From: Elusimicrobiota bacterium
GTDB lineage: Bacteria > Elusimicrobiota > Elusimicrobia > Elusimicrobiales > UBA9959
Assembly: GCA_016234365.1 (NCBI GenBank)
Contig: JACRER010000080.1
Coordinates: forward strand, 2,619 to 66,618
DNA length: 64,000 nucleotides
Direction: 5' to 3'
Below the pieces are notes generated by a model that made no database searches, was not told the DNA's origin, and was given only the letters and a program-made list of their open reading frames with translations. Both the position numbers and the translations under genes were made by a program. Positions 4,506 through 45,823 of this stretch are shown one piece after another; the stretch's first letter is position 1; each line of letters begins with the position of its first letter.

Positions 4506-4523
4506 AGTAAGCTCCTTGGCGGC

Positions 4524-4649
4524 CGCCGCAGGGGGAAGGGTTTTCAAAACCAGCGTCGCGCACACCGTGCGCGCGCTTCCTGCCTCGGCCCTCGCGCTTA
4601 CGTAAGCTCGGGCCTCCGGATGGTTTTTAAAACCCTTCCCCCCGCGGCG
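4524..4649 (-). repeat. intergenic structured element, copy 1: 29-bp imperfect stem enclosing a conserved ~58-nt core
   Basis: 4524-4552 (cgccgcagggggaagggttttcaaaacca) pairs with 4621-4649 at 27 of 29 positions by hand count. The core at 4557-4614 is the reverse complement of the core at 43965-44022. It lies between the sdhB stop and the fumarase start. Confidence 0.7.
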
Positions 4650-4661
4650 ACCTTGGGCCCG

Positions 4662-5486
4662 CTACGCTTCTTCCGGCGTGTCGGGCGTAGAGATCAGGTG
4701 CGCCGGCTGGGCCTTGGGCTCGGTCTTGGCGAACAGGTTGGCCAGCAGGAACTCGCGGTTCATGCGGGCGATGTTGGCCACCTTCACTTCCTTCGGGCAG
4801 ACCGCTTCGCACTCGTACTCGTTGGTGCAGTTGCCGAAACCCTGCTTGTCCATCACCGCCACCATGTTCAGCGCGCGCACGTGCCGCTCGGGCGCGCCCT
4901 GCGGCAGCAGCGCCAGCTGCGAGATCTTGGCGCCGGTGAAGAGCATGGCCGCGCCGTTGGGGCACGACGCCACGCACGCGCCGCAGCCTATGCAGGCCGC
5001 CGCGTCCATCGCCTCTTCGGCGTCTTCTTTCTTTATGGGGGTGGCGTTGGCGTCCTGCGCCGCGCCGGTGTTAACGGAGATAAAGCCGCCGGCCGCGATG
5101 ATGCGGTCCAGCGACGAGCGGTCCACGGCCAGGTCCTTGAGCACCGGGAAAGCCTTCACGCGCCACGGCTCCACCGTTATCACGTCCCCGTCGCGGAAGC
5201 GACGCATATGCAGCTGGCACACCGTGGAGTGCTCGTCCGGGCCGTGCACGTCGCCGTTCACCACCAGGCCGCAGCTGCCGCAGATGCCCTCGCGGCAGTC
5301 GCTTTCGAAGGCGATAGGGCTGCCGCCTTTTTTGAGCAGGTCGTCGTTGAGGATGTCCAGCATCTCAAGGAACGACATGTCCGGGGACACGTCCTTGACC
5401 TTGTAGGAGACCATCTTGCCGGGCTCTGCAGGGCCGGCCTGGCGCCAGACGCGCACGGTAACCGTGAAGTGTTTAGAGCTGGTCAT
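4662..5486 (-). CDS. sdhB: succinate dehydrogenase / fumarate reductase iron-sulfur subunit
   Basis: A 2Fe-2S cysteine cluster (CREGICGSCG) and two ferredoxin-type clusters (CIGCGACVASCP, CTNEYECEAVCP). It sits directly downstream of the flavoprotein subunit. Confidence 0.92.
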   Translation of the reverse strand: MTSSKHFTVTVRVWRQAGPAEPGKMVSYKVKDVSPDMSFLEMLDILNDDLLKKGGSPIAFESDCREGICGSCGLVVNGDVHGPDEHSTVCQLHMRRFRDGDVITVEPWRVKAFPVLKDLAVDRSSLDRIIAAGGFISVNTGAAQDANATPIKKEDAEEAMDAAACIGCGACVASCPNGAAMLFTGAKISQLALLPQGAPERHVRALNMVAVMDKQGFGNCTNEYECEAVCPKEVKVANIARMNREFLLANLFAKTEPKAQPAHLISTPDTPEEA

Positions 5487-42860: not shown

Positions 42861-43892
42861 ATGAAAGCGCTCGTTAAAGCTAAAGCTGAAAAAGGCCTCT
42901 GGCTGCAGGACGTGCCCAAGCCGTCCATAGGCGACAACGAGGTCCTGATAAAGATAAAGAAGACCGCCATCTGCGGCACCGACATACACATCTACCAGTG
43001 GGACGACTGGGCGCAGAAGACCATTCCCGTGCCCATGCACGTGGGCCACGAGTTCGTGGGCGAGATAGCCGAGCTGGGCCGTGCCGTGCAGGGGCATTTT
43101 GTGGGCGAGCGCGTGAGCGGCGAAGGCCACATAGTCTGCGGCCACTGCCGTAACTGCAAGGCCGGGCACCGCCACCTGTGCATCAATACCAAGGGCGTGG
43201 GCGTGACCCGCCCGGGCTGTTTCGCGGAATACCTGGCCATTCCGGCCGAGAACGTGTTCTCCATACCCGAGGGCGTGAGCGACGAGGAGGCTTCCATCCT
43301 CGACCCGCTCGGCAACGCCGTGCATACCGCGCTCTCCTTCGACCTGATAGGCGAGGACGTGCTCATTACCGGCGCGGGCCCGATAGGCATCATGGCCGGC
43401 GCCATCTCCAATCACGTGGGCGCGCGCCACACCGTGATCACCGACGTGAACGATTACCGCATGGACCTGGCCCGCAAGCTGGGCATAAAGAACGTGGTTG
43501 ACTCCCGCAAGGAGAAGCTCCCGGACGTGATGAAAAAGCTCGGCATGACCGAGGGCTTCGACGTGGGCCTGGAGATGAGCGGCAACGCGCAGGCCTTTAA
43601 CGACATGATAGGCGCGGTGAAGATGGGCGCTAAAATAGCCCTGCTCGGCATCCTGCCGCCCAATACCACCATCCCGTGGAACCAGGTGATCTTCAAGGCG
43701 CTGTTCCTTAAGGGTATTTACGGCCGCGAGATGTTCGAGACCTGGTACAAGATGTGCGCCATGCTCACCAGCGGCCTGGACATCAAGCCCATTATCACGC
43801 ACCGTTTCCCGGTGAAGGATTTCAAAGAGGGCTTCGAGATAATGTCCTCCGGCAAGTCCGGCAAGATCATCCTGGACTGGACTGCGTTGTAG
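42861..43892 (+). CDS. tdh: L-threonine 3-dehydrogenase
   Basis: [69 protein letters not shown] is near-canonical for Tdh. Structural zinc Cys cluster [15 protein letters not shown]; GAGPIG NAD motif. Confidence 0.93.
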
Positions 43893-43934
43893 ATCGGGCG
43901 GATAGCCGGCAGGCAGAATAATGGGAGCGGGTGG

Positions 43935-44048
43935 CGAGGGTTTGCCTTCGCAGGGGCATCATGAAGCCCGAGCTTGCGTAAGCGCGAGGGCTGAATGCGA
44001 GAGCGCGGCCACGGTGTGGCCGCGCGTACCCGGAGAAGGCAACCCTCG
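43935..44048 (+). repeat. intergenic structured element, copy 2: ~14-bp stem enclosing the same conserved core
   Basis: 43935-43949 (cgagggtttgccttc) pairs with 44035-44048 (gaaggcaaccctcg). The core agcccgagcttgcgtaagcgcgagggc...gcgcggccacggtgtggccgcgc matches copy 1 at about 45 of 58 positions, ungapped, by hand alignment. It lies between tdh and the flavin-reductase-like gene. Confidence 0.7.
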
Positions 44049-44093
44049 ACAGGTCCCGCGCACTTGCAAGCCTGCCACAGAGAGATCCTGTAT

Positions 44094-44594
44094 ATGAAAT
44101 ACTCGGATAATTTCGACAAACTGTGCGCCGCGCTGGAAGGGTCCGGCGCTTTCCTCGTGGTCGAGGATAATATCGGGCGCGTCAACGTGATGACCATCGG
44201 CTGGGCCCAGCTGGGCCTCATCTGGAGCCAGCCCATCATGACCGTGCTGGTGCGCCCGTCGCGCTACACCTACGACCTCCTTTCAAAGGCCACCCATTTC
44301 TCCGTCTGCGTGCCGCATCCGGGCGGGATGCAGAAAGAGCTGGCTTACTGCGGCAGCAAGTCCGGCCGCGACTTCGACAAGGCGCGCGTCTGCGGCCTCA
44401 CGTTCAAGGAAGGCTACGGCCACAAGGTGAAATACATAGAAGGCTGCGAACTGGTCTACCAGTGCGAGATCTGCGTCGGCACCGGCCTGCCCACTGCCTG
44501 TTCGGAGCAGCCGGCGCTTTCCCGCTATTACCCCGGCGGGGGCGACGTGCATACGGTCTATTTCGGCAAGATAGTGAAGTCGGAGAAATTCTGA
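44094..44594 (+). CDS. flavin reductase-like (FMN-binding split-barrel) domain protein
   Basis: ORF 43995..44594 trimmed to MKYSDNFDKL at 44094. NVMTIGWAQLGLIWSQPIMTVLVRPSRYTYDLL is typical of the flavin reductase-like domain. Confidence 0.7.
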   Translation: MKYSDNFDKLCAALEGSGAFLVVEDNIGRVNVMTIGWAQLGLIWSQPIMTVLVRPSRYTYDLLSKATHFSVCVPHPGGMQKELAYCGSKSGRDFDKARVCGLTFKEGYGHKVKYIEGCELVYQCEICVGTGLPTACSEQPALSRYYPGGGDVHTVYFGKIVKSEKF

Positions 44595-45823
44595 TGCGCC
44601 ACGCCCGCCTCGCCCCGCTGTTCCTCGCCGCCGTCCTGCTGTCCGGCTGCGGTATCCTCAAACAGAAGGCCGCCGAGTATTACCTCGGTAAAGCGCGTTC
44701 CGCCGCCGCGGCGCAGAACCCCGCCCCGGCCGACCTCGAGGCGGCCTTTGCTTACGCGGACAAGGCGTTTAGCTACGCGCCCGGTTCCGAGCAGGCCGTG
44801 GAACTACTGGAAGACCTGGCCGACGCCTCTTCCCGCAGCGGCTTCGCCAAGGGGCAGGAAATGCAGGCGGCCTCGCTGCAGCGCGCCCTTAAGCTTGCCC
44901 CGCTCAACTGGTATGTCCGCGAGGCGCTCGTTAACTTCTACGCCGCCCGCGGCGACACGGCCGGCCTGGACGCGCTGGCCGCGCAGGGCCGCGAACTGGC
45001 GGCTTCGCCCGACTCCGGGGTCAAGTATTGCTCGCTCCTTTCCGCCCTTGCCGCCAAGGCCGCTTCCGTCCCCTGGCTGGAATCCGAAGCCTCCCTGGCC
45101 CTGAACAAGTCCGCCGAGGTTTTCTTCGGGAAGGCGGGCGCCTATGCCGCCGCCCTGGCCGAACTGCCTGGCCTGAAGGCGGAGTCCGAGAAACTGACCG
45201 CCGCCGACCCTTCCGTCAAGCGCGCCGCTCCTGCCGCGCTGGTCTCCGCCGCGGAGGTGGCCGCCGCCGACGCGCTGCGCTTGCCCGACGCTGCGGCGCG
45301 CGCCGCCGATTTTGCCGCCAGGGCCGCCGCCGACCCCGCTTTTCACAAGGCCGTGGAGATGACGGTGCAGGGCAACGTAGCCTTGCTGAAAAAAGAATAC
45401 GCGCAGGCCCGCGCGTTCTACCAGGGCGCGCTGCAGAACGCCCCCGGCCTGGTGGACGCCCGCCGCCAGCTGGCGGAAACCGACTTCCAGGAGGGCGCCG
45501 CGCTTGGCGCCGCTGGCGCGGACCGCAAGGCCTCCGCTCAGCTGCTTTACCGCGCCTACGGCACGGCCGGCGAGGTGATAACAGCCGTCCTTAAAGGCGG
45601 CGCCCCGCTGCCGTTCATAAAACCGGAGCGGTTCCTGGGCGAGTTGTACGCCCTGAAGGCGGCCGACCTGGCCGCGCTGCGCGCCGTGGACGGCAAGCGC
45701 CTGCGCAACACCGCCAGGCTCGAGGCCGAGTTTAAATCCGCGCTCGACGAGGCCGTAAGGCTTAACCCGGAAGGCCGCCTGGCCCGGGAGCTCCTCGAGC
45801 GTTATTCCAAAGAAGGTTTTTAA
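44594..45823 (+). CDS. Ala-rich lipoprotein with TPR-like helical repeats
   Basis: ORF 44462..45823 trimmed to MRHARLAPLFLAAVLLSGC at 44594 (lipobox). The start overlaps the upstream stop by 1 nt (TGATG). Confidence 0.65.
   Translation: MRHARLAPLFLAAVLLSGCGILKQKAAEYYLGKARSAAAAQNPAPADLEAAFAYADKAFSYAPGSEQAVELLEDLADASSRSGFAKGQEMQAASLQRALKLAPLNWYVREALVNFYAARGDTAGLDALAAQGRELAASPDSGVKYCSLLSALAAKAASVPWLESEASLALNKSAEVFFGKAGAYAAALAELPGLKAESEKLTAADPSVKRAAPAALVSAAEVAAADALRLPDAAARAADFAARAAADPAFHKAVEMTVQGNVALLKKEYAQARAFYQGALQNAPGLVDARRQLAETDFQEGAALGAAGADRKASAQLLYRAYGTAGEVITAVLKGGAPLPFIKPERFLGELYALKAADLAALRAVDGKRLRNTARLEAEFKSALDEAVRLNPEGRLARELLERYSKEGF

Follow-up and report, generated by a model that had tools for sequence, protein, structure and literature searches.

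A clade-restricted family of structured intergenic repeats with REPIN-like doublets in Elusimicrobia

Two folded elements in one contig

Within a stretch of 64,000 nt from an Elusimicrobiota genome (contig JACRER010000080.1; hereafter the window), two intergenic spacers contain similar and extensively base-paired sequences, one between sdhB and a fumarase gene (copy 1), the other downstream of tdh (copy 2). An earlier note on this DNA had proposed a transcribed RNA element that acts on the surrounding messages, and the locus raises the question of whether the two copies serve their neighboring genes or belong to a sequence that spreads among genes. We find that both copies belong to a previously undescribed structured interspersed repeat family that is confined to a GC-rich clade of Elusimicrobia (Elusimicrobiales). 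The family is new and clade-restricted, forms REPIN-like doublets and turns over at orthologous loci; we further infer that it is selfish or mobile. Taken as a whole, the reading as a REP/REPIN/BIME- or MITE-like intergenic repeat, selfish and probably mobile, has a probability of about 0.6.

Copy 1 is located in the sdhB-fumarase spacer (156 nt, minus strand), flanked by the sdhB stop codon (4662-4664), past which it begins after 9 nt, and by the Shine-Dalgarno sequence of the fumarase gene (4512-4517), whose ATG is at 4505-4503. SdhB and the class I fumarase are assigned by Pfam, and the sdhC-A-B-fumarase synteny is common to relatives. Judged by its position, copy 1 probably shares a transcript with sdhCAB and the fumarase gene. 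The features of the locus are as follows.

4521-4652, minus strand: copy 1, whole element (132 nt), outer stem and three-way junction (predicted fold)
4622-4652, minus strand: 5' arm of the outer stem, GGTCGCCGCGGGGGGAAGGGTTTTAAAAACC (predicted fold)
4521-4551, minus strand: 3' arm of the outer stem (predicted fold)
4578-4620, minus strand: branch P2, consisting of a short basal stem, tandem GA/GA, GGCCC/GGGCC and the apical hairpin GCUU-ACGU-AAGC at 4596-4607 (predicted fold)
4552-4577, minus strand: branch P3, a GC-rich hairpin with the invariant tip GCAC-GGU-GUGC and the loop ACGGUGU at 4562-4568 (predicted fold)
4662-4718, minus strand: 19 added C-terminal codons of sdhB and the stop codon (comparison by eye with L094)

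The spacer folds with -98.2 kcal/mol (z = -6.8), a stability that none of 200 shuffled sequences attains. The 29-bp stem described earlier (4524-4552 pairing with 4621-4649, around a 68-nt loop) is present, with 27 Watson-Crick pairs and one G·U among its 29 positions; the minimum-free-energy fold lengthens it to 4521-4551 / 4622-4652, and three more pairs reach position 4518. The distance from the 3' arm to the fumarase AAGGAG, previously given as 8 nt, measures 6 nt (4524 to 4517-4512).

Copy 2 (flanked by tdh at 42861-43892 and a flavin reductase gene at 44094-44594) folds in the same manner, with -101.5 kcal/mol and z = -4.6. The product of tdh is a Zn-ADH by Pfam, and sources name this Zn-ADH L-threonine 3-dehydrogenase. 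The element ends in GGCAGGC (43908-43914) and GCCTGCC (44070-44076), termini that recur in the loci L047, L061, L088, L041 and L073, with unrelated flanks in each.

43908-44076, plus strand: copy 2, whole element (169 nt, long 'B-ext' subtype; predicted fold)
43927-43949, plus strand: 5' arm of the outer stem, GCGGGTGGCGAGGGTTTGCCTTC (predicted fold)
44035-44059, plus strand: 3' arm of the outer stem, GAAGGCAACCCTCGACAGGTCCCGC (predicted fold)
43966-43991, plus strand: P2 hairpin, GCCC-GA-GCUU-GCGU-AAGC-GCGA-GGGC
44001-44026, plus strand: P3 hairpin with the loop ACGGUGU at 44011-44017 (predicted fold)

The similarity between the copies is as the earlier note had counted it: the core of copy 1 (4614-4557, minus strand) and that of copy 2 (43965-44022) agree at exactly 45 of 58 ungapped positions, the hairpin GCTT-NCGT-AAGC occurs in both, and the ACGGTGT hairpin keeps its pairing through compensatory change, with the stem GCGCGGCC/GGCCGCGC in copy 2 and GCGCGC/GCGCG in copy 1. 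A 25-base core pattern matches twice in the window and never in 100 shuffled versions. Both copies also lie, as described, between co-directional genes in sense orientation, and neither stem is followed by a T-tract. The common orientation is, with n = 2, a coincidence.

Extent of the family

To delimit the family, one genome for each of 185,579 species was scanned with a 20-base core pattern (GAGCTTNCGTAAGCGCGAGGG). The scan yields 89 stretches in 27 assemblies, with up to 14 loci in a single MAG. Among these assemblies, 22 are named Elusimicrobia, Elusimicrobiales or Elusimicrobiaceae, and 5 are named only 'bacterium'. A covariance model (R1; 125 positions, 26 pairs) was built from 68 copies and finds 119 copies across 734 kb of sequence, about 30% above the exact pattern. 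In the window R1 reports the two known copies only: copy 1 (match at 4523-4646, 112.5 bits, E = 9e-28) and copy 2 (match at 43933-44054, 100.1 bits); the next-best match scores 10.7 bits.

The comparison with Rfam that had been suggested for these elements returns nothing alike: the whole window has no match in Rfam 15 at the gathering score, and at E-values up to 10 both copies give chance miRNA and snoRNA matches only. A blastn search of both copies against 72,556 plasmids gives no match, the core pattern is absent (0 matches) from the IMG/VR viral contigs, and no description of the family was found in the searchable literature. The family supplies a clearly delimited structured repeat with covariation support for a poorly studied, mostly uncultured phylum, together with a usable model of 119 members.

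Architecture and covariation

Elements of the family are 125-190 nt long and consist of an imperfect outer stem (about 25-35 bp, median about 29 bp) that closes a three-way junction with two conserved hairpins. The outer stem, P2 and P3 fold in every inspected copy. The tip of P2 (GCUUGCGUAAGC-GCG) is nearly invariant across the family, that of P3 (GCAC-GGU-GUGC) is conserved, and tandem G·A pairs are conserved at the base of P2. The middle part of the outer stem is copy-specific yet paired. At least four subtypes exist whose outer-stem sequences are wholly different with the pairing retained; copy 1 is close to the A subtype, and copy 2 is of the B-ext subtype. The terminal sequences differ accordingly: B-ext conserves the 7-bp GGCAGGC/GCCTGCC, the A subtype only CTGACG/YGGCAG, the rest of its arms being copy-specific. 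In this conserved part of the A-type stem a G·Y wobble and an A·G mismatch are kept. Eight stem positions just outside the conserved core of A-type elements vary between copies and are nevertheless 92% Watson-Crick paired. Some copies also contain an optional 24-nt hairpin (GTGGAGCGAAGCGACACCGCAGTG), inserted at varying sites.

The earlier note had proposed looking for further copies and for covariation in a larger alignment, and both are found. In the 119-member alignment, which was fitted to model R1, standard pairs make up 97.0% of cells, compared to 77.0% upon shuffling (none of 500 shuffles attains as high a value), and in 21 of the 26 pairs both partners have changed. Covariation scores 0.464, as opposed to 0.140 for shuffled alignments and at most 0.123 with the partners slid. 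An independent analysis with MAFFT and RNAalifold finds double changes in 17 of the 26 pairs. The basal and middle pairs of P2 covary (G-C/A-U, G-C/C-G and U-A/C-G/G-U/A-U), as do pairs of P3 (G-C/C-G and C-G/A-U). The sequence holds up as a conserved folded element that is neither a terminator nor a coding remnant.

In 98 of 99 copies folding favors the sense over the antisense strand (mean -94.4 versus -81.8 kcal/mol), an advantage in keeping with either a transcribed RNA or single-stranded DNA. Counts of G·U against A·C were considered as proof of strand-specific (RNA) selection and are only suggestive overall: outer stems contain 170 G·U (G·T) and 31 A·C wobbles, mostly at inherited positions; the 26 modelled pairs contain 58 and 39, respectively, with a single column contributing 33 of the 58; and sporadic events in the copy-specific stem number 8 and 3. 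We note that template switching from arm to arm (quasipalindrome correction) can yield 'compensatory' changes even if no selection acts on the RNA, though it would fail to maintain the fixed mismatches. Selection for the fold, template-switch correction between the arms, or a combination of the two could maintain the pairing of the arms.

Genomic context

Genes next to the copies were called with a GC3-based method validated on the window. Of 91 copies, 88 are intergenic. Among 90 model hits with two called neighbors, 60 lie between co-directional genes, 36 in the same and 24 in the opposite orientation; 20 are found between convergent and 10 between divergent genes. The fold energy per nucleotide is alike for sense-oriented (-0.628 kcal/mol) and antisense-oriented copies (-0.649 kcal/mol). 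The neighbors are unrelated housekeeping genes: 130 neighboring proteins contain 143 Pfam families, none of which recurs more than four times, and no functional link to the element was found among them.

The role of an intrinsic terminator is ruled out by stems without a flanking T-tract or A-tract (T4 within 12 nt downstream in 2 of 99 copies, A4 upstream, corresponding to a U-tract on the other strand, in 4 of 99), and the dispersal of the copies, singly or as doublets, between unrelated housekeeping genes speaks against integron attC sites, which separate short cassettes in arrays next to intI. The position-specific composition upstream of the copies contains no -10-like signal of the kind that a promoter at a fixed distance would give.

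Genes for a mobilizing enzyme were likewise sought in the vicinity. No transposase occurs among the 25 Pfam families listed for the 130 neighboring proteins, nor among 9 proteins bracketed by two copies, and the matches listed for these 139 neighboring or bracketed proteins include no RAYT, reverse transcriptase or recombinase. None of the copies in 734 kb is split or carries an ORF. The flanks of six B-ext copies, which have defined ends, share no direct repeat, i.e. no target-site duplication. A coreless outer stem is seen at most once (0-1 candidates of the form CTGACG...YGGCAG in about 730 kb); an independent existence of this stem as a REP-like hairpin is therefore not supported as a general rule, although the 'shell' at the tdh locus described below still suggests core exchange.

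Copying as units and turnover at orthologous spacers

The copies behave as repeats within genomes. Unrelated loci of one MAG have only a sharp-edged block in common:

GWA2_62_23, loci L047, L061 and L088: shared block of 173-179 bp (B-ext unit), 96-99%
binchicken_co266_98, loci L020, L042 and L086: shared block of 262-268 bp (doublet), 99.6%
STC_50, loci L065 and L089: shared block of 384 bp (doublet), 90%

The 384-bp block also matches L015, from another species, at 85% with different flanks. Adjacent pairs are arranged head-to-head in 20 of 20 cases, with gaps of 15-133 nt, whereas pairs more than 400 nt apart occur in all orientations. The two members of an adjacent pair are usually of different subtypes, and no motif is shared among the doublet spacers. 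Doublets are copied as units and decay to singlets, and at orthologous spacers copies are gained, lost, flipped and replaced. Segmental duplication, recombination or gene conversion could be the source of some of these repeat-like patterns.

The two loci of the window illustrate this turnover. The sdhB-fumarase spacer contains:

Window and L090: one sense copy
L091 and L092: one sense copy, diverged (77 bits)
L093: an antisense copy only
L094: a head-to-head doublet

The stems of the orthologous sense copies differ by compensatory changes (GGGTTTT/GAAAACCC in the window, GGTTGT/ACAACC in L094, GGCTTAGC/GCGTGCC in L091), and the distance between stem and Shine-Dalgarno sequence varies among the orthologues. 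About 18 nt in L093 resemble the right arm of a sense copy that has been lost. In the window, sequence similar to the spacer after the lost antisense copy remains, now within the 19-codon extension of sdhB. The SdhB encoded there comprises 274 aa, compared to 255 aa in relatives, and shares 92-93% identity with the proteins of GWA2_62_23 and relatives; part of 4662-4718 appears, in a comparison by eye, to resemble the L094 spacer located after the antisense partner copy. Together these remnants would fit an ancestral doublet that decayed differently in each lineage.

The tdh-flavin reductase spacer varies as well:

L096 (GWC2_64_44): 20 nt, empty, with at least 7 copies at other loci of this genome
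L099: 15 nt, empty
Window: 201 nt, B-ext copy
L095: 223 nt, a sense C-type copy enclosed by an outer 'shell' hairpin specific to the locus
L098: 355 nt, an antisense C-type copy in the shell of L095 and a sense A-type copy
L097 and L100: 209 nt (L097), the shell of L095 holding a second repeat family

The shell hairpin (GCGGTTTCGC.../...GCGAAACCGC) is orthologous between these loci and holds a sense family-1, an antisense family-1 or a family-2 core, depending on the species. Family 2 has a similar architecture, contains UUGCG in one hairpin loop and is also found in L076, L022, L013 and L002. A simple inversion of the core between the arms was considered for L095 versus L098, but the arm sequences misfit a clean inversion. 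A scan of metagenomes with Tdh for orthologous spacers gave four close relatives, of which L100 alone is informative. No pair of a filled and a precisely empty site with alignable flanks was recovered.

Orthologous copies are better conserved than the DNA around them. L053 and L078 are 91.5% identical over the element and 82.2% over 3 kb of mostly coding surroundings, and three compensatory pairs in P3 account for 6 of the 12 differences. A host function would be in keeping with this conservation, which could also stem from gene conversion with other copies as donors.

We note that, in these MAGs, the elements explain long spacers, miscalled gene starts and the altered C-terminus of at least one protein, SdhB.

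Alternative explanations

Further readings were weighed against that of a REP- or MITE-like repeat. According to the first, the host has co-opted the repeat for a structural role in which orientation is immaterial, such as a block to 3' exonucleases, a transcription insulator or stop that works without a U-tract, or a binding site for a nucleoid protein or gyrase. Orientation-independent structural roles of this kind have been proposed for the REP/BIME elements of E. coli. Twice as many convergent as divergent contexts, the conservation of orthologous copies relative to their flanks and hairpins that are very stable on both strands (mean -94 and -82 kcal/mol) are in line with such a role, as is the head-to-head doublet, which provides transcripts from either direction with one sense copy. 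Stems with a T-tract after (2 of 99) or an A-tract before them (4 of 99) are, however, rare, copies are located within likely operons, where termination would be harmful, and individual copies are easily lost. The role would also leave the sequence invariance of the hairpin tips unexplained. Overall we regard recruitment as unlikely, if still worth considering.

A second possibility concerns the mode of movement. Many A-type cores are identical within and between genomes, the outer stems being copy-specific, and the tdh shell holds different cores in different species. A structure-guided mobile element would account for both if the core were copied into, or exchanged within, the apex of an existing hairpin by a protein that reads the invariant tips. 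We consider this specific scenario rather doubtful, a little more so than recruitment. Distinct from it, and also novel, would be a functional RNA in many copies with a protein partner dedicated to it.

The third reading is that of the earlier note, namely a cis-acting RNA element in the sdhCAB-fumarase and tdh mRNAs that serves as a processing or stability signal, a protein-binding site or a translational coupler. It is favored by the sense orientation of both window copies, each flanked by co-directional genes, by a very stable fold with covariation, by the folding advantage of the sense strand (98 of 99 copies) and by three further contigs that keep the sense copy of the sdhB-fumarase spacer with compensatory stem changes. 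Strong covariation and two same-sense copies in one window are, however, not by themselves the sign of a cis-regulatory RNA, and the orientation statistics and orthologous spacers give a different answer. A ratio of 36:24 with equally well folding antisense-oriented copies, an sdhB-fumarase spacer with the antisense copy only (L093) and others that are doubled, tdh spacers that are empty in two relatives, flanking genes without a common function and a stem-to-Shine-Dalgarno distance that is not conserved among orthologues all speak against this part of the earlier interpretation. A cis-regulatory mRNA element of fixed orientation and position at orthologous loci is not what is observed, and we judge the reading to be very improbable.

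Equally improbable is, fourth, a family of independently transcribed small structured RNAs, whose paired ends would protect the molecule and whose junction would bind a protein partner. A terminal stem that closes a conserved junction with optional hairpins is typical of stable non-coding RNAs, covariation is strong, folding favors the sense strand, and indifference to the orientation of neighbors is expected of separate transcription units. On the other hand, there is no positional promoter-like signal upstream and no terminator downstream, copy 1 starts directly (9 nt) after the sdhB stop codon, the flanks past the stem are unique to each copy, the 5' ends in a doublet are just 15-133 nt apart with spacers that lack a shared motif, and copies are lost without replacement.

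Proposed mechanism

Returning to the selfish and probably mobile repeat, the invariant hairpin tips and the junction would constitute the recognition site of a trans-acting protein, which presumably works on single-stranded nucleic acid in the folded form of the element. The nearest parallel would be a RAYT/HUH-type nuclease acting on single-stranded DNA. As no target-site duplication is seen, a RAYT/HUH-like or another non-target-duplicating mechanism is suggested, and we hold any particular enzyme as the mobilizing agent with much less confidence than the repeat-element reading itself. Once co-transcribed, copy 1 would form a hairpin of about -98 kcal/mol just ahead of the ribosome-binding site of the fumarase gene; any effect on the stability or translation of the sdh-fumarase mRNA is likely an incidental by-product.

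Comparison with known repeat families

The earlier note had named membership in a known REP/MITE family with terminal inverted repeats and target-site duplications as one finding that would contradict its reading. The behavior of the elements is indeed largely that of a REP/MITE-type repeat, whereas the family is not a known one and a target-site duplication was not found.

The REP/REPIN/BIME elements of proteobacteria, mobilized by the Y1 HUH transposase RAYT, are similar in being extragenic, multi-copy, GC-rich hairpins that occur in either orientation relative to genes. They likewise form inverted doublets of fixed arrangement that are copied as a unit and decay to singlets, build mosaics with other repeats and lack target-site duplications. 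A REP, however, consists of one imperfect palindrome, 20-40 nt long, with GTAG conserved at its 5' end, whereas the Elusimicrobia element (125-190 nt) has an outer stem that is copy-specific in part and a three-way junction from which two distinct conserved hairpins branch. No GTAG motif is present at its ends, no RAYT gene was found near the examined copies, and there is no sequence similarity.

A second class of relevant systems are hairpin-forming MITEs (ERIC/IRU, the Correia elements of Neisseria, RUP and Nezha), which are also non-coding and intergenic, have a length of 100-200 nt, pair their ends into a long stem, vary in presence between relatives and yield mRNA hairpins if transcribed. 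MITEs differ in their conserved terminal inverted repeats, their target-site duplications and a related autonomous insertion sequence; the Elusimicrobia arms vary except for short motifs, six B-ext copies are without duplication, and no parent insertion sequence is seen. A third class are the mosaic repeats RIME and NIME of rhizobia and cyanobacteria, with modules nested or juxtaposed in one spacer. Corresponding examples in Elusimicrobia are family 1 and family 2 within one outer hairpin and the optional 24-nt hairpin module, although RIME and NIME belong to other phyla, have other sequences and are not defined by a covarying three-way junction.

By analogy, the family appears to work most like REP/REPIN/BIME and hairpin MITEs (ERIC, Correia), yet it lacks defining features of both: it has no short GTAG palindrome, most subtypes appear to be without conserved terminal repeats, no target-site duplication is seen, and a cognate gene was not found near the examined copies. 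Several of its properties go beyond the standard REP and MITE models, namely a three-way junction with invariant tips, arms that are paired yet differ between copies, strictly head-to-head doublets, the lack of target-site duplications, and an apparent exchange of cores within a persistent outer hairpin. The cognate enzyme, if found, could bring to light a new mode of recognizing and moving folded single-stranded nucleic acid.

Differing cores at the tdh-flavin reductase spacer

The tdh-flavin reductase spacer harbors a locus-specific outer hairpin, here called the shell (GCGGTTTCGC...ACGTCA...TCGGGG / CCCCTCCG.GCGAAACCGC), which is conserved in four contigs carrying the orthologous locus:

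L095:2541-2720, shell hairpin in the tdh-flavin reductase spacer
L097:2539-2725, shell hairpin in the same spacer
L098:2540-2722, shell hairpin in the same spacer
L100, shell hairpin in the same spacer

Depending on the contig, the interior of the shell consists of a family-1 core in sense orientation, a family-1 core in antisense orientation, or the core of a second structured repeat family (family 2; core CGCGAACCCTGGAAGATGGAAACCGTTGCGCGGTTTCC...). At the tdh locus, family 2 is enclosed by the same outer hairpin that encloses family 1 in other species. The differing interiors suggest that cores have been exchanged, inverted, or inserted repeatedly at a hairpin apex. Family 2 shares the architecture of family 1, an outer stem and two hairpins, with UUGCG located within one hairpin loop, and family-1 copies often adjoin it. 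Family-2 elements lie at the following positions, among others:

L097:2575-2705, family 2
L100:1560-1800, family 2, with an additional nested hairpin
L076:6851-6938, family 2
L022:1605-1665, family 2
L013:1433-1603, family 2

Variation within family 1

Some family-1 copies contain an optional hairpin module of approximately 24 nt (GTGGAGCGAAGCGACACCGCAGTG and variants) that includes a GCGAAGC mini-hairpin and is inserted either after P2 or on the 3' side of P3 (L051, L087, L018, L020, L034, L069, L074, L079, L026, and L013). The copy-specific part of the A-type outer stem is consistently G-rich in its 5' arm (G 117, C 74) and C-rich in its 3' arm (C 100, G 76), which means that G-C pairs in this variable stem cannot freely turn into C-G pairs. 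One MAG holds three doublet copies at unrelated loci (L020:2357-2483, L042:368-492, and L086:5557-5681) that are 99.6% identical. The block common to all three stops within the A-type outer stem, and only in L086 is the 3' outer arm complementary to its own 5' arm. Two of the three copies are therefore truncated or chimeric, or else misassembled.

Genes adjoining the two copies in the window

The gene 3' of copy 2 encodes a flavin reductase with a length of roughly 166 aa, as judged from synteny with L095-L099, and is followed by a long ORF without a Pfam match, whose real start is probably near 44591:

44094-44594 (+), flavin reductase gene, start ATG at 44094
44462-45823 (+), long ORF, 453 aa as listed
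4662-4718 (-), C-terminal extension of SdhB

SdhB comprises 274 aa in the window, compared to 255 aa in its closest relatives: the usual stop codon of sdhB is gone, and what used to be spacer now adds 19 codons to the reading frame. Some of this extension appears similar in sequence to the region after the antisense partner element in L094, whose sdhB-fumarase spacer holds a head-to-head doublet.
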